A stretch of DNA of 64,000 bases from a virus: IMG/VR virus record IMGVR_UViG_3300042691_032784, positions 1-64,000 of that record. The stretch is one strand, 5' to 3'. Both the position numbers and the translations under genes were made by a program. The notes below the pieces were generated by a model. The model did no database searches. It was not told where the DNA came from and was given only the letters and a program-made list of their open reading frames with translations. Shown here one piece after another: positions 4,401-59,510 of the stretch. The first letter of the stretch is position 1. Each line of letters opens with the position of its first letter.

Positions 4401-5824
4401 GTATTATTTGTCCTAGTGGTTATGTAGTTGTAGATCAAATTAAAGGTAAAATATTTTTAATAGGTGATGAATATACTGAAATTAGTAAAGCTAATATGAT
4501 TAATTGGTTTGAAGCTAATTGGGATACTAAATTTTATTATATTTTAGATAGATTTAGTAAAAAACAAAGAGTTGATAATCCTTTTAATAGTATTGGTCAT
4601 TTAGTAGGTTATGATGAAGATAATAATAGATTATTATTTACTAAAAAATATTATGAATTTAAATTTCCTGAATTAGTAGAAAATGATGAAGAAGTAGGAC
4701 CTTTTACTTATACATTTGATGGAGAGTTTTATTATAATAAAACAAGTTTAGTTAATGGTATTCAAGTAAATGTAAATAATCAACCTTCAAATGGTAATAC
4801 TACTTCTTTAAATTATAGAGATATTAATAATGTTCAATTATTTAATGTATCTTGTATATTTGTAAATACTGTAACAGACCCTAATCATGTTTTAATAGGT
4901 ATTAATCGTTTTGCTACATTTGTTAATTATATATCTTATATAAATTTAAAATTAAGTGAAGCTAATTTAATAGAAGGTAAAGATTATTATTTAACTATTA
5001 GTAATAATGGAGTAGATACTCCTTATTTTATATTAACTATTTTTAATAACACTGTATTAGTTTCTAATGATAATAATGTTACTGGTTTTACTTTTAATTA
5101 TCCTGTTATTGAAATACCTTTTCCAAAAAGACTAATATATAATGATGAACGTTATTTTATTAATAAAAGTAAAACTTTATCTTTTCAATTAGATGATAAA
5201 GTATGGGTATGTGAACATGATTATTATCCTAATGCTTATTATTTTAATCAATTAGGTTTATTTAGTATTTATAATAACCCTACTTTTGAATTAGATGAAG
5301 AAGGAGCTGTAATTAATATTAATTTTAATTTTAGTAATTATATACATAATCAAAAATCTGTTAATAGAGGATTATTTTATAATAAAAATTATCAATCTTA
5401 TATTGATTTAATATTTAATGGAAGATTAGATTTAAGTAAATTATATCAAGCTGTAACTTGGGAAAGTGTTGTTTATACAATAGAACAAGCTAGATTATAT
5501 AATAATACTATTGATGCTATAATGATTTATAGTGATTATCAATGTAGTGGAGTTATTAATTTAGAACAATTTGTAAATTGTAGAAATGTAGAAGGTGTTT
5601 GGAATTTTAATGAATTTAGAGATGTTGTAATTAATTCTAATTTCCCCATAGTTGATAGTGTTGGAGACTTAGTTGAAAATAATGTAAATTTTAACAAAAG
5701 TTTTTTTGATAAGTCAAAATTTATTGGTACATTTGTAGTTATACGCCTAATTATGTTTAATAATAATACTAATGATGTATATATTAATCAAGTTAATGTA
5801 AAAAGTAGAATTTCTAAAAGATAA
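1430..5824 (+). CDS. Tail stabilization/muzzle protein (P22 gp10-like)
   Basis: 1464 aa, N-terminal KGLSRD...ARNI...SNEYG, beta-rich, C-terminal F-I-G-x-F-V-V-I-R-L; crAss synteny. Confidence 0.75.
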   Translation: MEQFKGLSRDTTRSKTPAGMWEFARNILLTKGFTSVSNEYGFIEQVDIPGEVIGVISTNEETVILSIDGDFSCIGYFNNEELIYIPVIRSIYLGFKINHPIEGVFFYNFKQELIIAFCDGVALDSNTPKLINLNNLGFEVDVNYELVNPDDINLLNLFINTIEGNIRISYGTNSTIPIDIVYITFCYVLPDNISTTPYYPVHHIAYPTFQWNEKNRRPVIINLTELDNKYDQLKIGLIINTDNGLVGYESFPINYNNSQLNYTISSLTDFTITTLDNLIVPTIFYNRVKTMTTQNNQLVIGNIAIEEEIKIQKYVNRLELKLQYIIDEEEKFTHPTLCPDEVYAIYIQPQWLTGEFGKAYPLIGPEPNNNTERNILTQTDLNNLGLNELDANEYKKFHIINSGDWVLPPPFISNGDSSQVALKWGFWENEEVYPNIEDFNSTIDYNNNPLGGTDLRNTPIKYFRVPGLDNIIKKIPCPLGHTHKNDLNNSVTFQGYIPKFGVYLNNFNTVFPEKVREKMQGYRLLIVKRKQGNRLVEDIPFIHHGETRTMDIDGTNREFIHANYDNPQADGGQSLRHIYIQHGFSKLWSSTLSYYKNTISAKIIKANYGITHTRVRSGNDIEIELDDKGTFESVNSISNFTGYCKIKETQKYGIIKDLIYVPGNNIAAKTQFLEEGIFLKAKNYLQTDDGGYTDLPDEKWNPLLIYSPNGLSSRIDNIELYNSTTRLYEDFDITESDGCYKKTLSVTLLNLQKNLYSGFNPKEFISLGRVNINESNKILSDNGDIFTNNIIRVPTGILLGTSIFGRIIYNDLYIKGIWNINNNSSVFIEKDRPYNRIYELDGDGSESGLVNTFEFNLSFFNEDVFRSLNDLIVAIANNSLKPFINYFPFRVARTPKIPNENLQTNVLRTFRANDYYEMLNDRGEIIAIRGTNKQLFIQQKYSLFVATLKDKLNTDGTSTYLGEGDIFDRTPDEIKFNTNKGYIGCTNQFACIICPSGYVVVDQIKGKIFLIGDEYTEISKANMINWFEANWDTKFYYILDRFSKKQRVDNPFNSIGHLVGYDEDNNRLLFTKKYYEFKFPELVENDEEVGPFTYTFDGEFYYNKTSLVNGIQVNVNNQPSNGNTTSLNYRDINNVQLFNVSCIFVNTVTDPNHVLIGINRFATFVNYISYINLKLSEANLIEGKDYYLTISNNGVDTPYFILTIFNNTVLVSNDNNVTGFTFNYPVIEIPFPKRLIYNDERYFINKSKTLSFQLDDKVWVCEHDYYPNAYYFNQLGLFSIYNNPTFELDEEGAVININFNFSNYIHNQKSVNRGLFYNKNYQSYIDLIFNGRLDLSKLYQAVTWESVVYTIEQARLYNNTIDAIMIYSDYQCSGVINLEQFVNCRNVEGVWNFNEFRDVVINSNFPIVDSVGDLVENNVNFNKSFFDKSKFIGTFVVIRLIMFNNNTNDVYINQVNVKSRISKR
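5641..5664 (-). repeat. Dispersed motif copy 2
   Basis: reverse complement ccaacactatcaactatggggaaa. Confidence 0.8.
5705..5735 (+). promoter_or_regulatory. Bacteroidota primary-sigma promoter inside the 3' end of the muzzle gene
   Basis: TTTG (5705-5708), 19 nt, TACATTTG (5728-5735); ~90 nt upstream of the 5828 start. Confidence 0.65.
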
Positions 5825-5827
5825 AAT

Positions 5828-8281
5828 ATGCAACAACCTGATAAAAATAAAAGTAAAATTAAACCAGTAACTAGAGGAGATAGTTTAGTTGTTTATAATA
5901 GTACAGTTAAATTTGAGAATAAACTTAAAGAATTAAAATATAAAAAAACTAGTTCTTTTAAATCAGATATTAATAATAATTCTCAATTATATGGTAATAT
6001 ATATTCTTTTAATAATAATGATATTAAAATAAATCCTAATTATGTTGATTTAGAAGAATTAAAAAAAAATATATATAAAGATAGTAAAGGAGATATTTAT
6101 TTAAAACCTACAGTACCTCGTAAAGGTACTACTAATTATGGTAATATTAATGTAAATAATAAACCTGTTTTAAAAAAAATAGATGATAATCGATATTTAA
6201 CTATTGAAGATTTAGCTTATATAGGTTATAATACTGATTTACCTAATATTATATTAGATAAAAGAATTAAGCCTCAAAAAATAGAAGGATATGATTTAAA
6301 TGATGGAAATAAAAGAGATGTTATAAGTTTTAGTAAATATGATAAACTAGCTGTTAAACCTTTTGATTTATTAACAGAAAAAGAAAAAGTTAAAAGAGTA
6401 GAAGAATATGGTACTGATGGAGTTCCTCAAAGTTATTTGAATAAAACTAAAAATAATACAAGTACAAATACAAATACTACTAATAAACCATATACTAATA
6501 AACCAACTGCTACATATAGTACTAAACCAACTGCTACATATAGTAAACCTAGAGAAAAAGTTGAAGCTATTAAACCTTTACCTAGTGCATCTATAAAGAC
6601 TGGTAGTAATACTTTATATTCTGATGTTAAGGTTATTCGTAAAGCTAGAACCCCTAAAGCTTATAAAGTAGAAACTAGTGGAGGTAGTAAATCTAACAAA
6701 TGGAGAACAACACAAACTGTTAGTACTCCTGATAATATAGGAGCTAATGATGGAGATACAAGAAAAATAGTTCCTCTTTTTGGTGATGGTGGTAAAATTA
6801 ATACAATAAATGTTATGAGAAAACCAAGATTAAATAGTAGAAAAAGATATATTTCTCCTGCTGTAATTGGTGCAGGAGTTAATGTAGGAATGGGATTAAT
6901 TCAAGGAGCATTACAAAGAGGTGCTCCTATTAAAGCTAGAAGTAATGCTTTAAATCAAATGTGGAAAGAAAAATCTGTTAGTGATGCTCAAAGTTTTGAT
7001 GATTATACTAAAAATATTGATGATGTTATTGATTATTATGCTGATGGTGGTAAACTTCCAACATTATCATCTATGGGGAAATATAACACAACAGGAGGTA
7101 AATTAAAACCTATTGCTGATGGAGTTGTTGAAGTACAAGGTAATAAACATGGAGAAAAAACTATTGATAATTCTTATGGAGTTACTTTACATAAAGGTAA
7201 TCAACCAATTGCTGAAGTAGAAGATAAAGAAGTTATGGTAGAACAACCTGATGGTGATATGGTTTTTAGTGCAAGATTAAAAGATGAAAAAGGTGTATCA
7301 TTTGCTAATAGAATGAAACAATTAGCTAAAAAACGTAATAAATTAGAAAAAGATTTAGATAAAAATTATGATACTAAATCTCGTAATAGTATTGAACGTA
7401 AATTAGCAGGTCTTAATATGGCTGAAGAAGTTCTTAAAATTAAACAAGAAGAAGTTAAATTTGAAGAAGGTCAAGCTGAATTAGATAAACTAGCTAATGG
7501 TGGTAAAATTCCTAAATATGCTAATGGTACTATGAATTTAGGAGATACAGATAATTATTTATCTAAAAATAATAAACAAATGTGGAAAGATATATTACCT
7601 ACTTTAGCTGATAATGCAGGTAATATGTTATTAACTCTTAATACTCCTAAATTAGCTAAACCTATTAGAAAAAGTGCAGTTAATTTAAATACTAACTATA
7701 ATATTAATCCTCAATTATCAGAAGTTAAAAATGAAATAAATGCTATTACAGATAATATTTATAAAAATACATCTAATAGTAATATAGCAAGAGCTAATAT
7801 ATCTTCTGCTAGATTAAGAGGTTTACAACAGACTAATAATATATTAGGACAAAAAGAAAATATTGAAAATCAATTAAAGAATCAAAATAAATTAAATAAA
7901 CAACAAGTAGAACATATTAATATTGATGCAGATAATAATAATAATATGTTAGAATTTACTAGAGCTAATGATATTCATAGTAGAATTTCTGCAAATTTAG
8001 CAGATATGAGTAGTGATTTTAAAGAAGGACAAACTAGAAGAGATTATAATGCATATTATGATGAATCTATGTTATTAGAATTACTTGATGACCCTACTGG
8101 TGTTAAAGCTAGACATCTTATGAATAATCCTTATTTAAAAGCTAAATATGGTAAATATTTTACAAAACCTAGTAATACTGTTAATCCTAGACGTAAAAGA
8201 ATAGATACTAATTTTAATAATAATAATACTGTTATTGGTACTACTTATTTACCTAGAAGAATTGATGCTAATTTTAATTAA
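5828..8281 (+). CDS. Virion cargo/ejection protein
   Basis: 817 aa; VEVQGNKHGE and AEVEDKEVM...MVFS motifs of crAss cargo proteins, hydrophobic Gly-rich segment (PAVIGAGVNVGMGLIQG), coiled coils. Confidence 0.6.
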   Translation: MQQPDKNKSKIKPVTRGDSLVVYNSTVKFENKLKELKYKKTSSFKSDINNNSQLYGNIYSFNNNDIKINPNYVDLEELKKNIYKDSKGDIYLKPTVPRKGTTNYGNINVNNKPVLKKIDDNRYLTIEDLAYIGYNTDLPNIILDKRIKPQKIEGYDLNDGNKRDVISFSKYDKLAVKPFDLLTEKEKVKRVEEYGTDGVPQSYLNKTKNNTSTNTNTTNKPYTNKPTATYSTKPTATYSKPREKVEAIKPLPSASIKTGSNTLYSDVKVIRKARTPKAYKVETSGGSKSNKWRTTQTVSTPDNIGANDGDTRKIVPLFGDGGKINTINVMRKPRLNSRKRYISPAVIGAGVNVGMGLIQGALQRGAPIKARSNALNQMWKEKSVSDAQSFDDYTKNIDDVIDYYADGGKLPTLSSMGKYNTTGGKLKPIADGVVEVQGNKHGEKTIDNSYGVTLHKGNQPIAEVEDKEVMVEQPDGDMVFSARLKDEKGVSFANRMKQLAKKRNKLEKDLDKNYDTKSRNSIERKLAGLNMAEEVLKIKQEEVKFEEGQAELDKLANGGKIPKYANGTMNLGDTDNYLSKNNKQMWKDILPTLADNAGNMLLTLNTPKLAKPIRKSAVNLNTNYNINPQLSEVKNEINAITDNIYKNTSNSNIARANISSARLRGLQQTNNILGQKENIENQLKNQNKLNKQQVEHINIDADNNNNMLEFTRANDIHSRISANLADMSSDFKEGQTRRDYNAYYDESMLLELLDDPTGVKARHLMNNPYLKAKYGKYFTKPSNTVNPRRKRIDTNFNNNNTVIGTTYLPRRIDANFN
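6500..6545 (+). repeat. 24-bp in-frame tandem repeat (KPTATYST)
   Basis: aaaccaactgctacatatagta(ct) x2. Confidence 0.85.
7058..7081 (+). repeat. Dispersed motif copy 3
   Basis: ccaacattatcatctatggggaaa. Confidence 0.8.
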
Positions 8282-8290
8282 TATATAATT

Positions 8291-11626: not shown

Positions 11627-14600
11627 ATGGATAATTTAAAAGAATCTACACCAAATACTGGTACAGATTTAACAAGTGATTTATTAGCTGAAATAACCTC
11701 AAAGAATTCTTTGGGGTTTTCTGCTGATAATAATAATGATACTGACCCTAAAAAGAAAACTAGTAAAGTAGAAACACCTACTGATAGTAAAACATTAGGT
11801 ATGCCTACTACTTCTTCTATAAGTTTATTAGATGGTATGTCAAGATTTGCACATCAAAGAGTAGAAGCGGGAGCAGAAAGAGATACTAAAGTTAATTTAG
11901 ATGAATTAGCTGGTTATCTTAATACTGATTTTATTAGTTCTCGAGAAGCTGCTTTTGGTGAACGTGCTAGAAATCAAAGTAATTGGGAACAAGCACGTAA
12001 TATGTTTGGTAGAATTGGTGCTAATGTATTACCTGAAGTTTTAAGTAATATAGTTAGTGCTTTTGACATTAATAGTTATTATGAAAATGAAAGCCAAATT
12101 AATAATACTGTTGTAGAGTATTTAAAATCTATACAAGATAATGTTAATAAAACATTACCTATATATAGAGAAAATCCGGATAAACCATTAGATATTGGAG
12201 ATGCTGCTTATTGGTTTGAATCAGGAGGTAATTTAGTTACTTCTGCTGTAGGATTTGTAGGAGCAGGTTACGTTACAGGTGGTGGAGTAGGTACTATTTT
12301 TAGTAAAGCTGGACAAGCAGCTAAATGGATAAATACATTAGGTAAAGCTACTAGATTAGGAGATAAAGGTATTAATACTGTTAGAGGTGCTACTACTTTA
12401 ACTAATGCCTTAATGTTAAATCAAGCAGAAAGTTTTGGAATAGGAGTAGATACTTATAATCAAGTTTATAATAATAAACTTACTGAATTAAGAGCAAATC
12501 CTGAAAATTCTAAATTAAGTGATGTTGAAATTGATACTCTTGCTAAACAAAAAGCTTCTGAAGCTGCTGCAAGTGCTATTAATTTTAATAGAATTAATAT
12601 TTTATTAAATCTTAGTAGTGCTAATTTATTCCTTAAAACTCCAATAGGAACTAGAGCTTTAATTGAAGCTCCTAGTAGATTAAAAACTTTAAAAGGTATT
12701 GGATTAGAAGGTTTACAAGAAGCTGCTGAAGAAAATATTAATATGATTGCTCAAAATCAAGCAGTAGAAGAAAATTATACATTTAAAGATGCATTAAATG
12801 ATGTTGGTAGTAGAGAAGGTCTTGAAAGTACTATATTAGGATTTATTGGTGGTGCGGGGCAAACGGCATTAACAAAAGCCGGTAAAATGTTACCTATTTA
12901 TAAAAATACGGCTTTCAGGAATGAATATAATAACGCCTATTCAAAGTTAATACAAGAGGGGTACTCTAGTGAGGAAGCGGATGCAAAAAGTCAGGAAATC
13001 GCTTTAAATAAGGTCAAGTCTAGTAGTAATCGTGTATCTGATAACTTTATAAGACAACAAAGGTATATATTACAACAACAACAAATAGAGGAAAATAATA
13101 ATTTAGGTAAAGTATCTAAAATTAATGATGTTACTTCTGTATTTTATAATGCACAAGAAGAAACTGAATTATATAATAATTTAGCTGATGCAGTTAAAGA
13201 AAAAGATACTATTAAAATTGAAACTTTACAAAATAGATTATTATATCATCAAGCATATAAAAATTTTGAACTTGGTACTACTGATAGTTTAATTGAATTA
13301 TATAATAGTTTAGGTAATTTATCTAAAGAAGAAGCAGAAGAAAAAGGTTTATATAATAGACAAGATGAAGGAACTGAAGATGATTATAGAACTAAAGCTA
13401 AAAATGCAGTTAAAACTATTGAACAATTAGAACGTATATATTTAGAAAGTAAAAAATATATAAATAGTAATGAAGTTTATGGTACTCAAGTAGAAAAATT
13501 AGATTTAGATACTAAAATTGAAAAAAGACAAAAAGAAGCATTAGCTGTTATTGAACAAGCTAAAGTTGATTTAAAAAATAAACCAGAATTTCTTCCTGGA
13601 GATACTTATTTAGTAGATGGTATTATTACTAGAGATAGTTTAAATAAAGTAACTCCTAGATTTAGACAAACTGGTGCATATAGAAAATTTAAAGATAAAG
13701 TTCTTTCATTAGGAATTTTACAAGATACTCATGCTAACGTTCAACAACATTTAGATAATATTACTCGTAAAGAATATCAAGATTTTTTAGCTAAAGTTTT
13801 TAAAGATATGAAAGAAGCTGAAGTTAATAAAAGAAAACAAAAAGATATTGATAATAAAAAGAAAGAAAGTAAAGATAAAATAAATAAAATTGTTAAAAAT
13901 ATTGAAAATAAAATAGATGTTTCCCCCGTAGAAAATAGTGTTGAGGTTGAAACTGATATTATAGGTAATGAAGTTGTAGAAGAAACAAATATACAAAATA
14001 ATGTTCCTGTTGTAGATATTCCTACTGAACAACAATCTACTATTGTAGAACCTATTAATAATAATCAATTAATTAATGATTTAAATATAACTGCTAATTT
14101 TCCTGTATTTAATGAACCTGAATTAGATAATAATTTACAAGCTATTAAAAATGCAGTAGAAAATCCTAATGAAGATGTAGATAAATTACATACTAATTTA
14201 ATTAATTTTACTAATAGTTTTAGTAATGCTTCCTTTAATCTCAAACAACAATATCCTCTATGGGGAAAAGATATTGATAGTACTATATCTGAACTTAATA
14301 GATTAATTAATATATTTAAAGATAAGATTAATTCTATTAATAATATTTCTTCTAATTTAAAACAAGATATTACAGGTTTTGTAGATGAATTATTTGAAGA
14401 TAATAATACTGATATTGAATCTGATGATAATCCTGATACAGTTCCTAATTTTGCAAAAACTCTTAAACAAGCTAAAGATTTATTTAATTTATTACAAAAA
14501 TTAAGTTCTGCTGGAGTAGATATTTATAATTTTAGAGAAGTTATAATTACTATGGAAAATGTAGTAGGAAAAGAAAATATAATTTCTGTTTTTAATAAAA

Positions 14601-20600: not shown

Positions 20601-23600
20601 ATGCAGTATTACAATATATTGAAGGTAATGTTAATTTTTATAAAACTACTAAAGAAGGTATTGAAATTGATTATAATTTAAATATAGCAGGATATAATAA
20701 TGTTAATTTAAATAATCCTAATAGTAGTGTACCAGGAAAATATAAATCTGATGTTATTTCTGCTTTTCAATCAGCCGCATTAGATAATGAAAAAGAACAA
20801 TTATTAGGTAAATTAAATATAAATAGTAATACTTTTGATACTATTAGAGCTATGTCTTTAATGGGATTTGATGAAAATATTATTATTGCTTTTATAAATC
20901 AACCTATAATTATAGAGTATTTTAATAAAGCTATTGAAATTCCTAGTTTTAATGAAAATTTTAAAATATTATTAAAGAAAACTTCATTAGAAAAAATGTT
21001 TAATAATATTAAAGATGGAAATATAGATACTGAATATCAAAAAGCTGTATTATATTATTTTAATGATTTAAGTAATAAAGGTGCTATATTAAAACAAATA
21101 CAAAGTACTATTAATTCAGATAGTAGCGGTATTGGTAAAAATTTCTTTTATTCATTAACTAAAGGAGACCAAATTTTAACATTACCTAAATATGATAGTG
21201 ATATTAGAAATATTAGTAAATTAATTGGAGATTATTCTACTTCCCCTTTAGAAGATAGTGTTGATTACAAAGGTACTTATATTAAACCTAATAGTATTAG
21301 TGGTTTTGCTTCTACTTTTGGAGTATTAACTAATAATAAATTATGGAATAATTTTTATCTTTATAATAAAGGTAAAATTAGAGCTATATTTACAGCAATA
21401 ATAGAAAGTCAAAATGAAACTTATAATACTATTCAGAAACAAGCTGATGCACTTAATAGAGTTACTAATTCTTTTAAATCTTTCTTAAGTTCCAACACAT
21501 TCCATCTATGGGGAAAAGACACACAAACTGTAAATGATTTAAGATATAATTTATTATATGATACTGAAACTAATATGAGTTTAGGTTCTATAATTAATAA
21601 TTTAACTCAAAAAGATAAACCTTTTACTAATCCATTATTAGATAGATTACAAATAGGTAGAAATAATGTTACTAATACCTTTTTAGGTAGAATACCTACT
21701 GTTATTAATTATTATAATGCAGGAAGTATTGAAATGAATGAAGAAATTATTATTAATAGTATTATTGATATGTTAGTTAATAATACTTATTTAGGTGTAT
21801 ATAATAATAAAAATTATACTACTCGTAATTTAGCAGAAGATTTAATAGCTTATCAAATGATTACTAGTGGTATACAACAATCTAATAATTTTATTAAATT
21901 TATACCTATTGAGTATTTAAAAAATATAGGATATTATAATAATATGATTGCTAATTATCAATTATTTACTAATGAAGATTTTGTAAATAGTGTATCAGAA
22001 GCATTTTATACTCAATATATTCAACATAATCCTGATGAATTTTATAATGAAGAGATAGCTAAAAATTATGAAGTAGTTGATGGAAAATTATTTAGTAATG
22101 GTACTATTAAAAGACCTTTAGTAGTTTTATCTGGTTTAATGCCTAATAGTTATAGAATTTTTAAATATAATAAAGATATTAAAGATTTTGTTGAATTAGA
22201 CACTTTAGGATATAAAGGATTACAAGAGTATGATATGTGGTCTAGTTTCGCTGGTAAAAGTACTGTTTATATTCAACAAGTAAATAATAATATTGATGTA
22301 TTAAATAAATCTAATTTACCTGTATTTATTAATAATAAATTTAAAGAACCTAATACAGAATATATTCCGGATGAAAAAAATATTAATGATTTTCTTTCAT
22401 TAGATAGAGATACTGAACAAGATAATTCTCCTTTAGTATATAATACTAATACTTCTGATTTAAGTAAAAAATATTATTTAACTGATACATCTTTACCTAT
22501 TGCAGAAAAATATAAACATATTTTACGTAAAATTAGAAAAAATTCTGATAATACTATTTTATCTTATTTTGCAGGTAAAGTTTCTGAAATAATACCAGTA
22601 TTAAATGATATACCTTTATATGTAGATACTAATTTACAAGCTAAGGGTAGATTATATAAAAGTAAAGTATTTGGTGAACCTTATCAAATTAGAATTAATC
22701 CTAATAAGATAAAAACAGAAGAAGAATTACAAAGAGTTTTATTAGAAGAAATAGTTCATGCTATTACTGCTATGGAAGTTGATAAAGGTAACTCTACTTT
22801 TATTAAAAATTTAGAATTATTAAGACAAGATGCTATTAAATTTGCTAAATCTAAATATGGAGAAGGTATAATTGATATAGTTAATGATAAAGTAAAAACT
22901 AAAAAACCTTTAATTACTGGTACTGAAAGTAATATTATTTATAATTTAAGTAATTTACAAGAATTTATAGCAGCTTCTATAAATAATGTAGAATTTCAGA
23001 AGTTTTTAAATAGTATTAATGTTTCTGATAAAACTAAATCATTATGGAAAAGATTAATAGATGCTATTACATCATTATTAGAAAGTTTAGGAGTTAAAAA
23101 AGATAGTAATTTATCAGTAGCTTTACATGAAATTATTAATTTATTTGATAATGTAATAAAACCTACTATATATAGTAATTTTAATAAACCTAAATTTGTA
23201 AGAACTGTAGAGTATCTTAATAATAAATTTAATTTAGTTAATAATGAAGGTATTTTAATTCAAAAAGCTAATGCTGAACAAATTGTTAATTTTATTAATA
23301 ATAATATCGTAAATGTAATAGCAAAAGAACAAAATGGTACTGTTATAATTGAACCTAATAGATTAATTGATTATTCTTTTGATTCTAATTATGAAACTGA
23401 ATATGAAATTATTGAATCTACTCCTGTTAATTTTCCTTCTTATAAACAAGCATTAGAATTAAGAGTTAAAAAATTAAGAACTGCTATTAAAAAAGCAAAA
23501 GATGAAGATAATTTTGTTAGAGTAAGTCAATTAGACGAAGTCTATAAAAAAGATAAAGATTTATTAAGTCGTATTGATGATATTAATTTTTTAGGAGATA

Positions 23601-27814: not shown

Positions 27815-28354
27815 TTAATGTATTAAATATGATATAAAATTTTCTTTAGTTTTTAATGTAGGTAATATAATAAAATCATCTATAACTCTAATATAATAAT
27901 TTCTTATATTTAAAGTATTAGCATTTATAGGATTATTATTAACTTCATCTACTAATTCATTAGTAGAAGTTATAATAAGTGATTCAAAATAACTTTGAAT
28001 TTCATCAAAATCTTTAGTAATACTAATATTATCTAATTTATATAATATACTTAAATAAGTTATTAATAAAATAAGTTTTTTATTATCTAATTTATTTTGT
28101 ATATAATATTTTAATAATGTATTAATATTATGTTTACAATGATTTTGTATAATTTCTTTATTCCATGAAACAAATAATCTTTCTGATATTTTAGTAATTT
28201 TTTCATCTAAAGTATCAGGTAAAATATTTACTAAATGGTTTGCAACATCAACTATTTCTAAGGGGGAAAATTCATCAAGTAATTTTCTACCTTCAAATGT
28301 ACTAGAATCTTCAAGACTTCTAATAATAATATTAAGTCTCTCTTGTCTTTCCAT
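27815..28354 (-). CDS. Hypothetical protein
   Basis: 179 aa ORF abutting its neighbours. Confidence 0.6.
   Translation of the reverse strand: MERQERLNIIIRSLEDSSTFEGRKLLDEFSPLEIVDVANHLVNILPDTLDEKITKISERLFVSWNKEIIQNHCKHNINTLLKYYIQNKLDNKKLILLITYLSILYKLDNISITKDFDEIQSYFESLIITSTNELVDEVNNNPINANTLNIRNYYIRVIDDFIILPTLKTKENFISYLIH
28243..28269 (+). repeat. Dispersed motif copy 8
   Basis: caacatcaactatttctaagggggaaa. Confidence 0.75.
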
Positions 28355-29379
28355 TATAATTTTAATAATTGATTAAATACATCTTGTCTAATAGTAGCAT
28401 CTCCACTATTAAATGTATTTTTAAATTTAGCATCATTAGTACGATATTCTTTAACATTTTGAAAATAGCCAGTAATACCATTATACACTCCCCAAGCTGT
28501 ACCTACTATATTTTCTTGTCCTATACCTTCATGGTAATAAGTAAGTGCTTTATTTAATAGATTTTCCCCCTTAGAAGATAGTGTTTGTTTTGAATCTCTG
28601 ACTAAACCTAATGCAGTTTCAATAATATCATAAGCAGTATCATCATTAACTTGCTTTTTACCTAATATACCAAAAGCTTCTTGATAAGCTAATGTATTTT
28701 GGTCTACAATACCTAGTATTTTTTTACTAAGTTCTAATTTAGTTTTAGCATTTTTAGTATGCATAATACTAACTTTAGTTTTGTTACCTCTTGTAGCAGC
28801 AGTTAATGTATTATTACAAACTACTCTTATTGGAGTAAACATAACTTGAATACTACTAGTACCATCATGTGACATAGTTAATAATAAATATTTATCAATT
28901 AAATCTTTATTAATTACTAATTCTTCTGTTACTTTAGCAGTAATAAATATAATTTCTCCATTACCTAATGCTCCTACTGTTTCATAAGATGCAAATTTAC
29001 CAATAATACTATCCATAAAATCAAAAGCTTCATAATTTTGAATAATATTATATTTTGCTCCTACTATTCCTAAGTACTGATTAGTATCATTTCTAACAGT
29101 TATAAATTTATCAGGAACTATAAATTCTTGTTTATAAATATTAGAATCTTTAAGTTTAACTCTTGAAATAGTATTATACTTTTTAGCATCATCAAAAGAA
29201 ATATGTTTATTATCATGATAATAAATTTTTCTTTTTTCTACTTCAAAATCTAATCCTCCTAATTTAATAGCTTCTTCAGAAGTCATAGCATCTACAACTT
29301 TACCTAAGCCATGCCATGGTACTTCTTTTTTACTAGCAAAACTAGCTCTATTATTTATAATATTAAGATTGTGTGCCAT
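28354..29379 (-). CDS. DUF932 family phage/plasmid protein
   Basis: MAHNL...PWHGLG, Y-x-I-I-Q-N, SHDGTSS, TPIRVVCNNTL, GTAWGVYNG motifs. Confidence 0.9.
   Translation of the reverse strand: MAHNLNIINNRASFASKKEVPWHGLGKVVDAMTSEEAIKLGGLDFEVEKRKIYYHDNKHISFDDAKKYNTISRVKLKDSNIYKQEFIVPDKFITVRNDTNQYLGIVGAKYNIIQNYEAFDFMDSIIGKFASYETVGALGNGEIIFITAKVTEELVINKDLIDKYLLLTMSHDGTSSIQVMFTPIRVVCNNTLTAATRGNKTKVSIMHTKNAKTKLELSKKILGIVDQNTLAYQEAFGILGKKQVNDDTAYDIIETALGLVRDSKQTLSSKGENLLNKALTYYHEGIGQENIVGTAWGVYNGITGYFQNVKEYRTNDAKFKNTFNSGDATIRQDVFNQLLKL
28563..28587 (-). repeat. Dispersed motif copy 9
   Basis: reverse complement caaacactatcttctaagggggaaa. Confidence 0.8.
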
Positions 29380-37155: not shown

Positions 37156-38476
37156 AGTCTCTTACAATATTATCAATTACATGAAAAGGTATCATATCTT
37201 CAGTATATTCATAAAATGTACAAGTAAGCATTTTATTAATAAATAAATGTTTTTGAAATAAAACTAAAGATTTAAAATTATTATCTCCTTTAGGATTTAC
37301 TTGAAATTCTTTACCTTGTTTAGTTCTACAAACAAATAAACCTAAATCAGGATTTTTATCTTGAGGAATAATATCAATAATTTTAAATTCTTCATCTATA
37401 ACTCTTTTAAGTTTTACCATATCCATAGGACGTTTACCAAATTGATAAAATCCTTCAGGATTTCTTAAAATAGAACCCTCATAACCATCTTTAATATAAT
37501 TATCAGTAAGTGTTTGAACTGTAGCATCACTTTTAATTTTATAAGTAGTTACAACATCTATTGAATTAGTAAAATCTTTTTCTTTAATTTGATTTATAAT
37601 ATCTTTAAGAATTGTAAATCTTGAAATATTATTAAGATTTTTAACACCTAAATCAAATGCAATAAATTGAACTCTATTTGTATCTAAATTAGGAGCTTTA
37701 ACAGCAGAAGATATAGTTTGTAATTTTTCTCCATGAATATATAATTCACCATCGAAAAATATATCATCTAATTCAAGTCCATAACCTTTAAGATTTTCAT
37801 CTATTAAAGTTTTGTTACCAACCAACACAACTTCTAAGTGGGGAAGATTATATCTCTTACCTTCTTTACTAAGTATTTGTACTTTATTATTAATAAAACT
37901 AATAGTACATCTAACTCCATTAATTTTAGGTTGTATTAAACAAGGAAATTTAATAATAATTGCTCCTTTTTCTTTAGGTTCATAAGGATTAAGTAAATAA
38001 AAATATTTTCTATCATCCCATAATTTACCATTAGGGTCAATCCAATCTTTTTTACTACGATAATATTGTTGAGCTTTCATAGGTTTAAGATTACCAAGAG
38101 CATCAGTATTATCAATAGGTAAATGTTTTTTTAAATATTCCCCCATAGAAATTGTGTTGGTTGTAGAAGATAATCCAAAATCCTCATTTTCTTTAAGATA
38201 ATTATTATATCCAATATCTTCTAAACTTTTATAACCTAAATCTTTTTTACGTCTATAAAGACTTTCTACTTCTAAAGTAGCTTGTGTTAAAGGAGATGTT
38301 TCATTAGATTTTCCAATGTTTTTTCCTTTAATATTATTTCTAGTAGTTTCTACTATTTTTCCTTCTAATTCTCCTGCTTTAAGTATAATTTGTATACCTT
38401 GTATATTTTTATTAACTTCTGCTGACCATTGAAGTACTTTACCTTTACTATCTTTTTTATATAAAATTTCTGTCAT
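37148..38476 (-). CDS. ATP-dependent DNA ligase
   Basis: QPKINGVR (motif I), DGELY, FIAFD, YEGSILR, KLK. Confidence 0.9.
   Translation of the reverse strand: MTEILYKKDSKGKVLQWSAEVNKNIQGIQIILKAGELEGKIVETTRNNIKGKNIGKSNETSPLTQATLEVESLYRRKKDLGYKSLEDIGYNNYLKENEDFGLSSTTNTISMGEYLKKHLPIDNTDALGNLKPMKAQQYYRSKKDWIDPNGKLWDDRKYFYLLNPYEPKEKGAIIIKFPCLIQPKINGVRCTISFINNKVQILSKEGKRYNLPHLEVVLVGNKTLIDENLKGYGLELDDIFFDGELYIHGEKLQTISSAVKAPNLDTNRVQFIAFDLGVKNLNNISRFTILKDIINQIKEKDFTNSIDVVTTYKIKSDATVQTLTDNYIKDGYEGSILRNPEGFYQFGKRPMDMVKLKRVIDEEFKIIDIIPQDKNPDLGLFVCRTKQGKEFQVNPKGDNNFKSLVLFQKHLFINKMLTCTFYEYTEDMIPFHVIDNIVRDYE
37822..37845 (+). repeat. Dispersed motif copy 10
   Basis: ccaacacaacttctaagtggggaa. Confidence 0.75.
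38138..38160 (-). repeat. Dispersed motif copy 11
   Basis: reverse complement ccaacacaatttctatgggggaa. Confidence 0.8.
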
Positions 38477-46014: not shown

Positions 46015-46493
46015 AATTGAAGTCTACTTGCAATTTCTAAATCACCGTCATTTAATTCTGCAATAATAGCAGTTCTATCATTTAAAGATTTTAAATATAA
46101 ATCTTTAACAGTTCTAGGAATATTAATATCTTTTGCATATTTAGGTTTTAATATAACAATATCACCTATATTTACATAAGTTTTTAATTCTCCTGTTCCT
46201 TTATTTACAAATTCTAAAAATAAAGGAGGGTCAAAACCATAAATTAGATTAGGATTTTTTTTATCTAATTCTACAATATCTTGTAAAGTTTTAAGATGAG
46301 AATAATCTTCTTCTATATTATTTACAAGTTTTACAGTAACACCTTTTTTAAGTTTTACATGAATTAAATCTTTATTAGGAATAGGATTATATTTAGTTCC
46401 AACACTATTATCTATGGGGGAAACTTTTTTACCTGTATTACCTGATAAAGGTTTAAATTTAAGTTCTTTATTATCTTCCATTATTTTAGCCAA
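46005..46493 (-). CDS. Hypothetical protein
   Basis: 162 aa ORF overlapping both neighbours. Confidence 0.55.
   Translation of the reverse strand: MAKIMEDNKELKFKPLSGNTGKKVSPIDNSVGTKYNPIPNKDLIHVKLKKGVTVKLVNNIEEDYSHLKTLQDIVELDKKNPNLIYGFDPPLFLEFVNKGTGELKTYVNIGDIVILKPKYAKDINIPRTVKDLYLKSLNDRTAIIAELNDGDLEIASRLQLCK
46399..46423 (+). repeat. Dispersed motif copy 12
   Basis: ccaacactattatctatgggggaaa. Confidence 0.8.
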
Positions 46494-48811
46494 TAAGGTT
46501 TTGTTTCTAATTCTACTTTAATTTTTACATTATTAAGGTATCTATTAGCTACTTCTTCAAGTACTATTTTAATTACTTGTGGTAAATTATCTAATTTTTC
46601 CCCCTTAGAAAAAGGATGATTGATTTGATTACCTAATGAATTAAATAATATATATTCATCTGAATATCCATCTAATTCTTTAGTTATCCTAATAACAAAT
46701 TCATCATGTACCCAAGCTAGTTGATTAGCATCTATTTTATTTTTAATAAAATATTTATTTAATACAACAGCAGCTTCTTTAAGAAATGTAGCTTGTGTTC
46801 CTTGAATACGTTTATTACGAGCGGCAGATAAAGCTTCAGATATTTCAATAAAATTATCTTTTTCATTAATTTCTTTTTTAAGAAGTTTAATTAATGAAGG
46901 AAACCAAGCTCTAGCATTAGTTCTTGAGTCAAATATTACAAAACCATTCTTTTTAGCAAAAGCAGATGCTTCTTTAACCATTTTAATAGTATTAGGAATT
47001 TCTGATTCAATAGTTTGTATTACAATTTTACCTTCTTCAGTTGGTATATTTAAAGTATTACCTGCTTTTTTAGGATACATACCATAAATAACTCCAAATG
47101 TCATTGGTTTAAAAGCATTACGAATATCTCCAAGACTTTTAGTAACTAAATATTCTTTAGTTAATCTTACATACTCACGATATTGGTCTTTTAATTTATC
47201 AGTAACTCCTTTACTATTAACTGTAAAAAATTCTAATAATTTTTTAGCTCTATAATAATAAATATTTCTCCAACAATTAGTAGCCATATGACTATGCATA
47301 TCTTGTTCAGATAATTCAATAAGTCTAAAATCTTGAGCATGAGAAGCCATAACAATTAATTCTGCTCCACTATAATCAGCAGTAACTAAACTATATTTTT
47401 CTGCATCAACAGTAAAACAATTTCTATATTCATTACTACGTGGAATATTTTGAGCATTATATTTATCAGGTTCATTATCTCCACCTCCGGATTGATATCT
47501 ACCAGTAACTGCTTCACATTGTCTAAAAATAGTATGAATTTTATTAGTAACAGGATTAATTTTATTTATAAAATTTTCTCCATAAGTACTTAAAGATTTT
47601 TCTAATTTACTATGTTTAATAAGTAATTTTATAAAGTCCTTCATTAAACAATCAGGTTTTAAAATTAAATATCTTTGTAATAAATCAGCTTTAATACTAT
47701 AAGCATCTACTTTACCAATAAGTTTACCTTTATTATCAAATTGTGGAATAGCAAAAGTTTCATCAGGTTTAATCATAGGTTCTTGTAAAGCAGCAAATAT
47801 ATGAACTATATCTTTTTTAGATTTATAATTTATATTTCCTGTTTCAACAGTAAGTTTCTTTTTAAGACCAGAAAAACTTTTAGAAGTCATTGGGTCACCA
47901 AATAAATCTTTTTGATTTACAGTACCATCAGAATTAATAAAAGAATCTAATTCAGAAGGTTTTCTTTCTTTATTAAATTTTTGACCTCCTAAAGATACTT
48001 TAATATCTATTTTAAAATCATTATTAAAATTAATTTTAAATTCTTTAAGTTTACGAACTTCATTATCTAGTTCTACTTTAATATTAAATAATTCTTGTTT
48101 TTCTTTTATTATTCTTTTTCTCCATAATTCAGTATCAAATACAAAACCTTCTAATTCTGCTTTTGCAATGATATTAATTAATGGAAATTCAATACCATAA
48201 ATTAAAAAAGGAACTTGATATTTTTTAATTAATTTTTGTTGTACTTTTCTAACATCAAATAAATCAACTAAATCTCCTTTAAGATAATATAAATGTGATG
48301 CAGTTATTTTAAATTTTGTAATATCAGCACCAATAAATTCATCTCTAGTAGTTTTTAATATAACTTTATTTAAATGTCTTTTAACAACTTCAGAATAACT
48401 AAAATTATAACCAAGTCCCATAAATAATCTTTGGTCTGCAATCATAGTATCATACAATTTTGTAAATAAAATATTATATTGTACTTTTACTATTTTAATA
48501 TCATATTTAAGATTATGACCTAGTAATATTGTATTGTATTTAATAAGATTATTAAATATATATTCAATATTAATAGTCCAATCAAACATAATTTGCTTTG
48601 ATTTAGTACCAAAACCATATAAGATAGGAGTTAATAAATATGCATCAAGACCATTAGCTTCAATATCAAAAGCTAAAATTTTTCTTTTACTAAAGTATTG
48701 ATAATATATATTTTTACCTTCATTTTCATCTAAAATTATAATATCGGGAAAAATAGATTTATTAATACTTTTAGTATAATATTCTTTATTATTAGTTACA
48801 AAGTATATCAT
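46481..48811 (-). CDS. polA: Family A DNA polymerase with 3'-5' exonuclease domain
   Basis: FDIEANGL, HNLKYD, YDTM; TGRYQS, DYSGAEL (A), RNAFKPMTFGVIYG (B), IQGT, VHDE (C). Confidence 0.93.
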   Translation of the reverse strand: MIYFVTNNKEYYTKSINKSIFPDIIILDENEGKNIYYQYFSKRKILAFDIEANGLDAYLLTPILYGFGTKSKQIMFDWTINIEYIFNNLIKYNTILLGHNLKYDIKIVKVQYNILFTKLYDTMIADQRLFMGLGYNFSYSEVVKRHLNKVILKTTRDEFIGADITKFKITASHLYYLKGDLVDLFDVRKVQQKLIKKYQVPFLIYGIEFPLINIIAKAELEGFVFDTELWRKRIIKEKQELFNIKVELDNEVRKLKEFKINFNNDFKIDIKVSLGGQKFNKERKPSELDSFINSDGTVNQKDLFGDPMTSKSFSGLKKKLTVETGNINYKSKKDIVHIFAALQEPMIKPDETFAIPQFDNKGKLIGKVDAYSIKADLLQRYLILKPDCLMKDFIKLLIKHSKLEKSLSTYGENFINKINPVTNKIHTIFRQCEAVTGRYQSGGGDNEPDKYNAQNIPRSNEYRNCFTVDAEKYSLVTADYSGAELIVMASHAQDFRLIELSEQDMHSHMATNCWRNIYYYRAKKLLEFFTVNSKGVTDKLKDQYREYVRLTKEYLVTKSLGDIRNAFKPMTFGVIYGMYPKKAGNTLNIPTEEGKIVIQTIESEIPNTIKMVKEASAFAKKNGFVIFDSRTNARAWFPSLIKLLKKEINEKDNFIEISEALSAARNKRIQGTQATFLKEAAVVLNKYFIKNKIDANQLAWVHDEFVIRITKELDGYSDEYILFNSLGNQINHPFSKGEKLDNLPQVIKIVLEEVANRYLNNVKIKVELETKPYWLK
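46597..46622 (-). repeat. Dispersed motif copy 13 (left half degenerate)
   Basis: reverse complement caatcatcctttttctaagggggaaa. Confidence 0.65.
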
Positions 48812-53363: not shown

Positions 53364-53762
53364 TTATAATTTATTAGTTATAATTAAAGCATCAGTTAAT
53401 ATCATAGAATTATTTGCACTATAATGCAAAGGAAGAATATTATATATTTTATATCCTTTATTTGTTAATTCAATAATTTTATCTTGAATTGTAATAAATC
53501 TAGGAATAGATATAGAATAATGATGTAATTCTTTTTCTTGATTGTTAATATTTACTGGATTATCTAAAAAATTAGATTGTAAAACTTCAATTAGTTTTAT
53601 AACTGATTCATTATCTAATTCAATATAAGATTCACTAGCTTGAATAAGTAGTGATTTACCTCGTATTTTTTCCCCGTAGAAGGAATGTAGTGTTATGTTT
53701 GAACCAACTGATATTTTTTCTTTATCAGTAATTCCATAAAATTTAGCTAATTGTGTACTCAT
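53364..53762 (-). CDS. Hypothetical protein
   Basis: 132 aa ORF. Confidence 0.55.
   Translation of the reverse strand: MSTQLAKFYGITDKEKISVGSNITLHSFYGEKIRGKSLLIQASESYIELDNESVIKLIEVLQSNFLDNPVNINNQEKELHHYSISIPRFITIQDKIIELTNKGYKIYNILPLHYSANNSMILTDALIITNKL
53669..53690 (-). repeat. Dispersed motif copy 14
   Basis: reverse complement ctacattccttctacggggaaa. Confidence 0.7.
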
Positions 53763-53798
53763 AGTATTATAATTATTAGTTAATATTTATTTTAAGTT

Positions 53799-53822
53799 CC
53801 AACACTATTTCTAAGTGGGAAA
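53799..53822 (+). repeat. Dispersed motif copy 15 (intergenic)
   Basis: ccaacactatttctaagtgggaaa. Confidence 0.75.
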
Positions 53823-53924
53823 TATTCATAATTTTATATTTTAGATAAAATTATAAGACTTTAAATTAAGCGATTTAAGACATTCATTTTTAAACTAATA
53901 TTATAATATTATATAGGTACTAAA

Positions 53925-54270: not shown

Positions 54271-54276
54271 TATTTA

Positions 54277-54693: not shown

Positions 54694-54694
54694 A

Positions 54695-55665: not shown

Positions 55666-55671
55666 AATAAT

Positions 55672-56094: not shown

Positions 56095-56098
56095 TTGT

Positions 56099-56374: not shown

Positions 56375-56392
56375 GATTAAGTTAATTTGTAC

Positions 56393-56820: not shown

Positions 56821-56929
56821 AATTACCTAGTTAGTAATTTAATAATCAATCAATAGTAATATAACCACAATATTCTACTGCCCAAACAATAGAATTTAAT
56901 CAATCTTTAGTAATATATCAAACTTAATA

Positions 56930-57379: not shown

Positions 57380-57436
57380 TTTGATTATGTTTTAAATTAT
57401 TTGTTTTATTAATACTTCGTTTACTTTTACAACCAG

Positions 57437-57470
57437 AAGCATACTCGCCACATATGTAGCGAATATGCTT
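57437..57470 (-). other. Long RNA hairpin downstream of the 57502 gene
   Basis: Minus strand aagcatattcgctaca-ta-tgtggcgagtatgctt; both DNA mismatches become G-U pairs. Confidence 0.65.
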
Positions 57471-57501
57471 GATTGTTATAGCCCGTACCTATTGTATGAG
57501 C

Positions 57502-58134: not shown

Positions 58135-58179
58135 AATAAAATATATAAATAAATAATAAAAGATTTTAGTAGCCACAAG

Positions 58180-58990
58180 GACTACTACAGAACGTGGTTA
58201 ATGCTTAAACAAACAAGCAAAGCTATGTGTTAACACAAAATCTAAGCGAGTATTATTAATTTAAGCATTATGCTTTGTAGAGATTTAAGCAAAGTAGTAC
58301 GGGTACTTCAAAACCTCCAAAACTTAGTAGGGGTCTTTATTAGGGTGGGTTCACGTATACGGGGTTAACTATATATTCCTATTAATCCACATACAACTCC
58401 TCCTCCAACAATCAACTCCATCAAACTAACCTCCTCCTAAACCAACATCACCAAATCTAACCAAACTAATCCTACCAAAACCTCATCAACTTAACCAAAT
58501 AAAACCTTTATCAACATTACAAACTTTTACAACTCTACCATCACTACTAAAAAAAGTTATATTAGTGAGTTACTATACAGCATTAACATATTAACTACTA
58601 TTACCATTATCACCACTATTAAAAATTTTGTTAATATTATGTTAAAATATTATTAATTATTTGTATATTACATTTTATTTATTATATTAAGATTATATAA
58701 TACTAATTATTAATCAATAAAACAAATATATATATATAATTTAACAAAAATTTAACAATTAAATATAGTCGATTTAAGAGATTTTTCCCCTTAAATGATA
58801 ATGTTGTTGTCGAGTAAAAAATTATTAAATAGACGGTCTGAAAATGCCTATATATCAATTATTATTCATATATTTGTAATTGAATATAAAGTATTTTTAT
58901 ATAAGGTATTAATAATACTGGTTATATTGTTAATATAACTTTTTTTAGTAAAGATACTATTAGTAATAATGAACAACAAAATAATAATGA
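58180..58990. promoter_or_regulatory. Divergent control region / candidate replication origin
   Basis: Strand switch; G-runs at 58.30-58.36 kb; G-free tract 58365-58555; TGTTAA/TTAACA repeats flanking an AT-rich core; TATATTTG -7 boxes at 58723-58730 (-) and 58869-58876 (+). Confidence 0.55.
58784..58806 (-). repeat. Dispersed motif copy 16 (intergenic)
   Basis: reverse complement caacattatcatttaaggggaaa. Confidence 0.75.
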
Positions 58991-58991
58991 T

Positions 58992-59510
58992 ATGAAAGAA
59001 ACAATTAATCCTATTAATGTTAAAGTTCCTCAAGAACTTATTAACTATCGTCTTCAAGCTAAATCTATATTAGCTTTTTGTACTAATCAAGCTTATGCTA
59101 ATAATCAAAAATTTTCATATAGTATTGAATTTAAAAAAGGAGAACAAGCTATCACTTATGATAATGTAAATTATATTAAACATTATTATACTTTTAGTTT
59201 AATACTTCTTAATAAAAATACAAGTATTATTGGTCAAAGAATTGAATTATATGTAACACACTACCCAATTTCTATGGGGGAAAATAGTATTACTTTAGAA
59301 AAATTAGCATATAAAGATTTCTTTACTAATGCTATTGCTTCTCTTATTAATAATACTTATGCTATGTATATAAATTCTTTACAAAAAGATTTAGTTAAAC
59401 CAGAAGATGTAACTTCTGAAGATGCTGAAAGAGAAGCTGCTATTATTAAAAATAGAATTGAATCAGGTATTACTGAAGAAGAAAAACCAAAACTTATTAT
59501 AACTAAATAA
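58992..59510 (+). CDS. Hypothetical protein
   Basis: 172 aa, first gene of the rightward block. Confidence 0.65.
   Translation: MKETINPINVKVPQELINYRLQAKSILAFCTNQAYANNQKFSYSIEFKKGEQAITYDNVNYIKHYYTFSLILLNKNTSIIGQRIELYVTHYPISMGENSITLEKLAYKDFFTNAIASLINNTYAMYINSLQKDLVKPEDVTSEDAEREAAIIKNRIESGITEEEKPKLIITK
59259..59283 (+). repeat. Dispersed motif copy 17
   Basis: cactacccaatttctatgggggaaa. Confidence 0.7.

Follow-up and report, generated by a model that had tools for sequence, protein, structure and literature searches.

The 81,152-bp virus record IMGVR_UViG_3300042691_032784 (hereafter G000), the ends of which overlap by 69 bp, is a circular or terminally repeated genome of a lake-water relative of crAssphage. 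Its first 64 kb, which constitute the window analyzed here, are AT-rich (G+C about 23%), with genes on the + strand as far as 26.8 kb and from 59 kb onward, and on the - strand across 27-58 kb. The first of these arms includes a giant open reading frame (ORF; 11627-26824; 5,065 aa) that matches a 4,401-position virion-protein PHROG and displays DFDVD at residue 2801; the sequence DFDxD, its x being I or V, is described as the catalytic signature of the crAss-type virion RNA polymerase (vRNAP) in the phi14:2 preprint (10.1101/2020.03.07.982082). This two-barrel enzyme is the only polymerase recognized as an RNA polymerase in G000, and the ORF next to it shows a weak match to the Crassvirus muzzle C-terminal domain. 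The genome further encodes a primase, a DnaB-like helicase, a DNA polymerase A, a ligase, a RecT-like protein and an exonuclease; scans of ~55 ORFs against PHROGs and Pfam recovered no nickase, recombinase, transposase, initiator or extra polymerase. Distributed through these genes on both strands is an asymmetric word of 25-30 nt, CAACAC-TAT-nn-TCTA-w-GGGG(G)AAA, whose regular placement is the subject of this work.

The word was recovered starting from the rare G4/C4 runs in the window. Its information is restricted to about -28 to +4 relative to the end of the G-run, and its anatomy comprises a 5' box that varies between lineages (CAACAC in G000), a pyrimidine tract closing in TCTA and a G-start, GGGG(G)AAA. 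A search of the whole record with a profile hidden Markov model (nhmmer; 17 seeds) retrieved 23 copies scoring at least 8.7 bits, 12 on the + and 11 on the - strand, 18 of which lie inside the window. An earlier note on this DNA had allowed that a sensitive scan might uncover many weak, scattered copies; these are absent, and because the next match reaches only 3.5 bits, no such copies dilute the pattern. When an exact form with 16 specified bases was scanned against viral contigs, it gave 15 single matches in unrelated contigs, none with further copies, a number close to a rough estimate of the chance expectation. A naive detector of k-mers recurring as proximal inverted pairs was too noisy for use on other phages.

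The same note had described the copies as inverted pairs spaced quasi-regularly along the genome, and this description holds throughout: 16 of the 18 window copies form eight opposite-strand pairs centered at 6.4, 14.1, 21.4, 28.4, 38.0, 46.5, 53.7 and 59.0 kb, with the partners 1412, 319, 246, 321, 322, 198, 127 and 469 nt apart from center to center (wide only for the first pair). The G-ends point outward at 6, 14, 21, 54 and 59 kb and inward at 28, 38 and 46 kb, and two pairs are embedded within the giant RNA polymerase gene. The layout goes on past the window with two further pairs, the copy at 61393(+) being single, and the - strand partner predicted upstream of nt 119 is present, but as a weak copy. 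The individual copies, with their profile scores and their counterparts in three related genomes described below (G001, G002 and G003), are as follows:

116..146, + strand: sense copy in ORF 3-752, with its partner at 80939-80974(-) across the junction; 12.5-15 bits; G001 ortholog within 4 nt.
80939-80974, - strand: beyond the window, 258 nt from the nt-117 copy across the junction; weak, 8.7-11 bits.
5640..5671, - strand: antisense copy in ORF 1430-5824, left arm of the wide divergent pair; 16-17.6 bits; orthologs in G001, G002 and G003.
7051..7084, + strand: sense copy in ORF 5828-8281, right arm, 1412 nt from its partner; 18-19 bits; orthologs in G001 and G002, variant copy at the G003 place.
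13917..13953, - strand: antisense copy in the giant vRNAP ORF; 24 bits; ortholog in G001.
14236..14272, + strand: sense copy (L-W-G-K frame) in the giant vRNAP ORF, divergent pair of 319 nt; 21 bits; orthologs in G001 and G002.
21239..21273, - strand: antisense copy in the giant vRNAP ORF; 20-21 bits; ortholog in G001.
21485..21519, + strand: sense copy in the giant vRNAP ORF, divergent pair of 246 nt; 16.5-17 bits; ortholog in G001.
28239..28273, + strand: antisense copy in ORF 27815-28354, left arm of a convergent pair straddling the gene junction; 20-21 bits; ortholog in G001.
28560..28595, - strand: sense copy in the DUF932 gene 28354-29379, convergent pair of 321 nt; 26-27 bits; orthologs in G001 and G003, decayed at the G002 place.
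37814..37847, + strand: antisense copy in the ligase gene 37148-38476; 15-18.5 bits; ortholog in G001.
38134..38171, - strand: sense copy in the ligase gene, convergent pair of 322 nt; 21.5-22 bits; orthologous G001 place without a copy.
46391..46426, + strand: antisense copy in ORF 46005-46493; 24 bits; orthologs in G001 (29 nt off) and G002.
46594..46618, - strand: sense copy near the C-terminus of the DNA polymerase A gene 46481-48811, convergent pair of 198 nt across the gene junction; 16-19 bits; orthologs in G001 and G002.
53665..53697, - strand: sense copy in the small ORF 53364-53762; 14.7-17.5 bits.
53792..53825, + strand: non-coding copy (no ORF of at least 60 aa) with a GGG core only, divergent pair of 127 nt; 12.5-15.8 bits.
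58781..58816, - strand: non-coding copy where the two gene arms diverge, pointing into the minus arm; 16.7-17.7 bits.
59250..59285, + strand: sense copy in ORF 58992-59510, the first plus-arm gene, divergent pair of 469 nt; 20-21 bits; ortholog in G001.
61385..61420, + strand: unpaired sense copy in the exonuclease gene 61019-61954; 18.7-20 bits; decayed copy (5.0 bits) at the G001 place.
65.2/67.2 kb and 71.4/71.7 kb, opposite strands: pairs beyond the window.

Random placement of the copies, evaluated for both distance and orientation, puts the pairing and the even spacing far beyond chance. There are 9 tight (at most 600 nt) opposite-strand neighbor pairs in G000 versus 1.81 expected (0/100,000 random placements), and 11 opposite-strand pairs within 2.1 kb when all are counted, the 9 tight ones included. 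The coefficient of variation (CV) of the gaps between the 12 cluster centers is 0.294 versus 0.895 under the null (P=1.5e-5). The gaps are likewise even on each strand taken separately, with a CV of 0.30 on the + strand (P=6e-5) and 0.19 on the - strand (0/100,000), and successive copies alternate in strand at 20 of 23 steps versus 12.0 expected (P=0.001). On a single strand, neighboring copies of G000 are at most 9.6 kb apart; in the set of four freshwater genomes this maximum ranges over 9.6-15.5 kb. These results show that the pairs are part of a genome-wide lattice, in which each strand carries one copy per 5-10 kb (about every 7 kb).

Inverted repeats of ~30 nt that flank segments of 0.1-2 kb could in principle delimit small mobile elements or invertible DNA, or form the arms of long-range RNA stems. 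However, the arms of a pair are no more alike than the arms of different pairs (identity 0.495 versus 0.498; P=0.55), the segments between them are conserved coding sequence found in the same place and orientation in G001, and the G-out and G-in arrangements both occur, alongside single copies. With no recombinase or transposase recognized in the scanned ORFs either, we find this explanation scarcely credible.

The relationship of the copies to the genes is equally informative about what kind of signal they are. As the earlier note had stated, their placement is independent of gene boundaries: 21 of the 23 copies are intragenic, and by orientation the set divides into 12 sense, 9 antisense and 2 non-coding copies. 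The sense copies read S-(M/K/T)-G-E/K (8), L-W-G-K (2) or lie in other frames (2), thus spanning at least three reading frames, and the antisense copies all read (F/S)-S/F-P-(I/L/V)-(D/E) with further residues following. Since one word is found in unrelated proteins, in both orientations and in several frames, it can only be a nucleic-acid signal overlaid on coding sequence and not a peptide.

The copies might be signals of gene expression, serving as promoters or terminators that bound ~7-kb mRNA units for a phage polymerase. The word has a promoter-like anatomy, sense copies recur on both arms at 5-10-kb steps, and the gene starts at 46493 and 28354 are preceded by sense copies, at distances of ~100 and ~200 nt, respectively. 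Against these stand the 9 of 23 copies that are antisense, the 21 of 23 that lie in ORFs, and the four within the single 15-kb vRNAP ORF, in which initiation or termination of transcription would yield truncated messages. Moreover, no T7-type polymerase gene was detected with PF00940, a profile that was silent in the control genomes too, and the RNA contigs considered below do not start at copies. The middle and late promoters of crAss-like phages described in the phi14:2 preprint are sigma-70-like and mostly intergenic, as were 120 of 137 hits (10.1101/2020.03.07.982082). We hence regard promoters or terminators as a highly unlikely account of the lattice.

To follow the word through related genomes, we drew relatives from IMG/VR via the DNA polymerase; a blastn search of a named phage collection with 7.9 kb had given no close relative. 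These fall into three tiers of 81-83-kb genomes, G001, G002 and G003, with DNA polymerase identities to G000 of 70%, 55% and 44-45%, respectively. G001 has 23 copies in a layout like that of G000: 18 of the 23 G000 copies map within 29 nt of a G001 copy (17 within 9 nt), 2 fall at places without a copy and 3 are unmappable, and the proteins around the shared sites are only 35-78% identical. The G000 version of the word is absent from G002 and G003; at some orthologous places these genomes carry a variant, which is in each case their own genome-wide word (...TTCTAAAGGCAAA, 22 copies, in G002; ...CGAATAAAC-TCTCTCTAYGGGCAAG, 24 copies, in G003). The core common to the consensuses of all four lineages is YTCTA-n-GG(G/C).

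The layout rule is conserved across this freshwater clade. In all four genomes the per-strand CV is 0.17-0.41 versus a null of ~0.89 (each P<=0.004), there are 6-9 tight opposite-strand pairs per genome versus about 1.8 expected, and the copies of G001-G003 are split between the strands much as the 12 and 11 of G000 are; divergent and convergent pairs number 8:3, 8:2, 6:4 and 6:4. The individual sites, in contrast, turn over. Only 5 of 22 sites in G002 and 2 of 24 in G003 are orthologous to G000 sites (5 and 15, respectively, being unmappable), and yet these two genomes retain a per-strand CV of 0.24-0.41 and 6-7 tight pairs. The 28560(-) site is a case in point: G000, G001 and G003 all have it, whereas G002 shows a decayed copy there and a new - strand site about 230 nt away. 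The non-orthologous sites of G002 remain closer to the nearest same-strand G000 site than expected by chance (1216 versus 1868 nt; P=0.023), whereas the phase of the G003 lattice relative to that of G000 is not conserved (1909 versus 1872 nt; P=0.54). Together, these comparisons show that selection keeps the spacing, and not the individual positions, through the loss and replacement of sites.

At the 18 orthologous sites of G000 and G001, identity is 0.82 in the 3' box, 0.70 in the flanks and 0.53 in the 5' box; taken as a whole, the motif does not differ significantly from its flanks (0.72 versus 0.695; P=0.26). The 5' box is less conserved than the flanks because all copies shifted together, and such concerted change at many separate loci points to one trans-acting reader with drifting specificity; the lineage-specificity of the word suggests that this reader is phage-encoded. 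These features indicate that the word is a strand-specific cis-signal read by a co-evolving factor, which is probably a phage product.

The comparison across the clade also bears on two broader proposals of the earlier note. Its preference for a physical process acting on DNA over gene-specific regulation stands, in that the spacing rule applies to each strand, ignores gene structure and survives the turnover of sites; a strand-reading physical process on DNA fits these data better than gene-specific regulation, although of the processes named there (translocation, looping, nuclease protection and restart) none stands out. What did not survive is the association of inward-pointing pairs with the replication block: in G002 and G003 convergent pairs are also found in the vRNAP gene and the structural arm, and the G002 pair near the 28.4-kb place is divergent.

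Beyond the freshwater clade, the prototype crAssphage (BK010471.1; 97 kb) contains 32 copies of YCTC(T/C)A-n-GGGG, on both strands and both within and between genes, in a spacing denser than that of the freshwater genomes. The longer form of its word is TCCATCCTC(T/C)ACGGGG(GG/A)GT; the 3' half matches the G000 3' box (core YCTC(T/C)ACGGGG versus TTCTA(C/T/A)GGGG), while the 5' part, TCCATCC, is unlike that of G000. Even spacing per strand recurs here, with a CV of 0.31 for the 18 copies of the - strand (0/100,000) and 0.50 for the 14 of the + strand (P=0.005), whereas pairing is weak, with 6 tight pairs (12 of 32 copies), 3 of them intergenic, versus 2.86 expected (P=0.054). Two of the intergenic pairs, both divergent, lie directly upstream of the two annotated repL genes (28077-28180 and 95745-95872 in BK010471.1), and one of them coincides with the origin that PMC10983915 predicts upstream of repL. 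The word is absent from phi14:2 and FpV4-1.1 (whole genomes) and from the first 50 kb of DAC15. An enrichment scan in which the word came first in crAssphage and within the first five in G000 and G003 detected no other dispersed word in phi14:2 or FpV4; the word enriched in phi14:2, CCTTCTTCTA, proved to be a coding artifact with no common flanks. The property shared by the word-bearing phages is therefore even spacing per strand, with close pairing particular to the freshwater clade.

This distinction bears on whether the duplex or a strand is recognized. The copies might be bound by a protein with an architectural or segregation role, which would bridge or coat the DNA, set domain barriers, nucleate condensation or packaging or effect partition, with a symmetric oligomer seated on inverted half-sites. 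Inverted pairs would suit such a two-fold symmetric protein, the back-to-back pairs of G003 that lie 30-39 nt apart resemble large palindromic operators, the even spacing fits domain organization, and a binding protein dedicated to the word would be compatible with its concerted drift. However, the distance between arms varies from ~30 nt to 2 kb in the freshwater genomes, in both relative orientations; single copies are common; and crAssphage, with so few of its copies in tight pairs, has each strand evenly spaced nonetheless. Because unpaired copies are common and each strand is evenly spaced on its own, the data argue for reading of a strand rather than binding of the duplex, and we consider architectural sites quite unlikely. 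The same range of arm distances, along with the many unpaired copies in crAssphage, disfavors a loop of fixed geometry.

The reading that we favor, though only tentatively, is that primer or RNA synthesis starts at the copies of each strand and that these start sites cluster into bidirectional initiation zones. Each copy would start nucleic-acid synthesis on its own strand, where the phage primase, or the vRNAP acting on single-stranded DNA templates, could make a primer or short RNA, with the result that any stretch of either strand would be no more than about 10 kb from a defined start. A single local opening of the duplex would expose both strands, and copies on opposite strands would accordingly adjoin, a pair being a bidirectional initiation zone; divergent and convergent pairs would both serve this end. 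Because every copy in a genome has changed in concert, we infer a single sequence-specific, phage-encoded reader. The anatomy of the word, with its variable specificity box, TA step and G-rich/purine-rich start, suits an initiation site, and the promoters of T7, T3 and SP6 have a comparable layout of variable box, TA step and G start. For phage two-barrel RNA polymerases, promoter motifs were found at a minimum search width of 15 nt in the P23-45 preprint (10.1101/2022.12.01.518664), and the crAss-type vRNAP transcribes single-stranded DNA, its own start signals being unknown in the account of the phi14:2 preprint (10.1101/2020.03.07.982082). The divergent pair at the point where the two gene arms of G000 diverge, taken with the pairs upstream of repL in crAssphage, suggests a link to replication.

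Several observations weigh against this reading. The coincidence with repL was noticed post hoc, and the OriFinder origins are themselves predictions. GC skew at third codon positions does not flip consistently between pairs in the manner of an origin: its trends are opposite in the two arms and vary from genome to genome. The word-less phi14:2 and FpV4 have primases too, and known primase sites are just 3-5 nt long. The promoters of the N4 vRNAP and the classical single-strand initiation (ssi) signals are hairpins, whereas single G000 copies have no hairpin potential (mean z -0.62 on the motif strand and +0.16 on the complement, for 23 copies versus shuffles with RNA energy parameters). We know of no precedent for ~12 initiation zones on 81 kb. 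The RNA evidence, which consists of contigs assembled from four metatranscriptome runs of three studies and cannot define ends, covers 54.03-54.31, 55.1-55.3, 56.46-56.92 and 57.4-58.3 kb and almost none of the rest of 44-64 kb; within this cover no contig begins at a copy, a weak hint, and the contigs over the gene 57502-58176 extend to 58142-58307, stopping ~480 nt before the 58781(-) copy.

The same even coverage of each strand, with a capped maximum gap, would be expected if the copies were polar signals for a DNA-tracking enzyme, either Chi-like (for a helicase-nuclease) or akin to the FtsK-orienting polar sequences (KOPS; for a translocase), such that an enzyme that loads at any break would, whichever way it travels, meet a correctly oriented copy within about 10 kb. 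Both orientations would then be needed, and the G-rich core recalls Chi sequences. Chi and KOPS, however, are words of 5-8 nt set by the host, in contrast to a word of 25-30 nt with a lineage-specific box, and a tracking enzyme offers no reason for copies on opposite strands to adjoin. Polar signals accordingly strike us as improbable.

Gene content provides a further handle on the reader. By tblastn, the DUF932 gene (28354-29379; E=2e-49), the ATP-dependent ligase (37148-38476), the RecT-like protein (41940-42875) and one helicase are shared by G000-G003 and crAssphage, and none of the four was detected in the word-less FpV4 and phi14:2; the primase, a Dda-like helicase and the exonuclease occur in word-bearing and word-less groups alike. 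The DUF932 protein, the ligase and the RecT-like protein are thus candidate partners of the signal, a lead drawn from five genomes with and two without the word. The DUF932 protein had no relative in the PDB by sequence, a protein atlas returned only DUF932 clusters, and its single-sequence fold was unusable, with a predicted local distance difference test (pLDDT) score of 33.

The presence of the ATP-dependent ligase in all five word-bearing genomes and in neither FpV4 nor phi14:2 would also agree with site-specific nicking, in which every copy would mark a single-strand cut made by a phage nickase in DNA that is mature or still replicating, both strands being served, and the ligase would reseal the nicks after entry. 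The nick motifs described in PMC3517423 and PMC11780129 keep their positions in relatives, occur in and out of genes and have been proposed to co-evolve with the enzyme; the phiKMV consensus given there is bipartite, spans 19 nt and has a CCTA/C step. All the nicks that these accounts describe, however, are on one strand and unevenly spread, as opposed to the even arrangement of 12 + and 11 - copies here. Further, head-to-head copies such as 6292+/6328- of G003, about 35 nt apart, would if nicked approach a double-strand break; no nickase-like gene was recognized in the scanned ORFs; and the ligase pattern is based on only two word-less genomes. Nicking consequently appears to us rather unlikely. 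If the copies instead start synthesis on each strand, a bolder extension, about which we are decidedly doubtful, is that some crAss-like phages, the prototype included, copy or process the genome in defined multi-kb units, with both strands begun or restarted from the fixed ~7-kb lattice and the phage ligase joining the pieces. The enzymes for such unit-wise copying could be the vRNAP, which depends on single-stranded DNA, or the primase, possibly with the DUF932, ligase or RecT-like protein.

Several other features of these genomes emerged alongside the word. A very abundant discrete RNA maps to the non-coding stretch 54032-54313, with contigs of 158-276 nt that are 100% identical and have a depth of 49-142 in four runs of three studies; one end is constant at 54032-54038, and it has no Rfam or tRNA match. 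Other RNA contigs, at 56457-56917, overlap C-free/G-free tracts, and those at 57415-58307 span the first minus-arm gene (57502-58176). Between the copy at 53798(+) and the abundant RNA lies a GC-rich imperfect palindrome (53925-53972; …GCAAAGCCGGTA…TACCGGCAAATTGC…), also non-coding, which may be a terminator or a member of a second dispersed family. The near-palindromic TAGCTAA/TTAGCTA is enriched as proximal inverted occurrences in G000-G003 and may be a separate regulatory or terminator word. A sub-threshold RAGATH-34 match at 52657-52761(-) (31.6 bits versus a gathering threshold of 60.7; E=0.13) is probably due to chance. ORF 35001-35861 matches the spore-photoproduct-lyase (radical SAM) family in Pfam (E=1e-22), with a counterpart in G001 and none detected by tblastn in G002 or G003. 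ARAGORN found no tRNA gene in the window, in contrast to the tRNA arrays of many gut crAss-like phages (e.g., DAC15). Judged by the vRNAP region, the closest cultured relatives are FpV4-like phages of Flavobacterium psychrophilum (27% identity), and this comparison hints at a freshwater Bacteroidota host for G000.

Literature searches, which did not extend to Supplementary file 1 of the phi14:2 preprint, with its promoter lists, or to the tables of the crAssphage preprint, returned no description of this word or of such a lattice, and we compared it with the known classes of dispersed or paired signals. The promoters of T7, T3 and SP6 and the promoter motifs of two-barrel RNA polymerases are, like the freshwater word, contiguous and asymmetric over ~23-30 nt, with a variable upstream box, a TA step and a G start; T7-type promoters lie upstream of genes in the sense orientation, unlike a word with 21 of 23 copies intragenic and 9 antisense. 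Chi and KOPS are short words determined by host enzymes and co-oriented with replication, whereas the freshwater word is several times longer than their 5-8 nt, has a lineage box and occurs in equal numbers on both strands. The uptake signal sequences and DNA uptake sequences (USS/DUS) of Pasteurellaceae and Neisseriaceae are ~30-nt words with a short core that run through ORFs in both orientations, evenly and with some inverted pairs. The freshwater word resembles them in being extended, lying in ORFs in both orientations and being more evenly placed than by chance; USS/DUS, however, belong to bacterial chromosomes and are read as duplex without regard to orientation, as against a lytic-type phage in which each strand is evenly spaced. 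In ssiA/ssiB of RSF1010 (IncQ) and the light-strand and heavy-strand promoters (LSP/HSP) of mitochondria, one oriented start per strand is placed close to its inverted counterpart for bidirectional initiation. The freshwater word likewise provides one oriented signal per strand, close together (11 pairs within 2.1 kb), but those systems have one unit per replicon and their ssi signals are hairpins, whereas G000 has about 12 units and no hairpin potential.

Two further classes were compared by their published descriptions. The sigma-70-type promoters of crAss-like phages are tripartite with -35/-10-like elements, intergenic and sense as described in the phi14:2 preprint (10.1101/2020.03.07.982082), as opposed to a contiguous word of 25 nt that is mostly intragenic and on both strands. 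The nick motifs of T5, the phiKMV-like phages and tf/Rembedalsseter are, by the accounts in PMC3517423 and PMC11780129, dispersed asymmetric words of unknown function with conserved positions in and out of genes, as in G000, where 18 of 23 positions are kept in G001; they are 9-19 nt long, confined to one strand and uneven, whereas the freshwater word is 25-30 nt long, equally frequent on both strands, even and paired. None of these known families thus fits the word in all the properties that define it. This matters for phages that are among the most abundant viruses and whose replication, early transcription and DNA handling are largely open. A long word kept by selection at regular intervals, overriding codon choice in essential genes, would mark an undescribed core step of the life cycle. 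The about 23 known coordinates in G000 are the exact places where such a process would show, and the lineage-specific versions of the word offer a route to the reader protein by co-variation. The pairing in the freshwater clade suggests that both strands are served by one local event, and unit-wise copying from a lattice, if true, would be a mode of replication not described for any virus.

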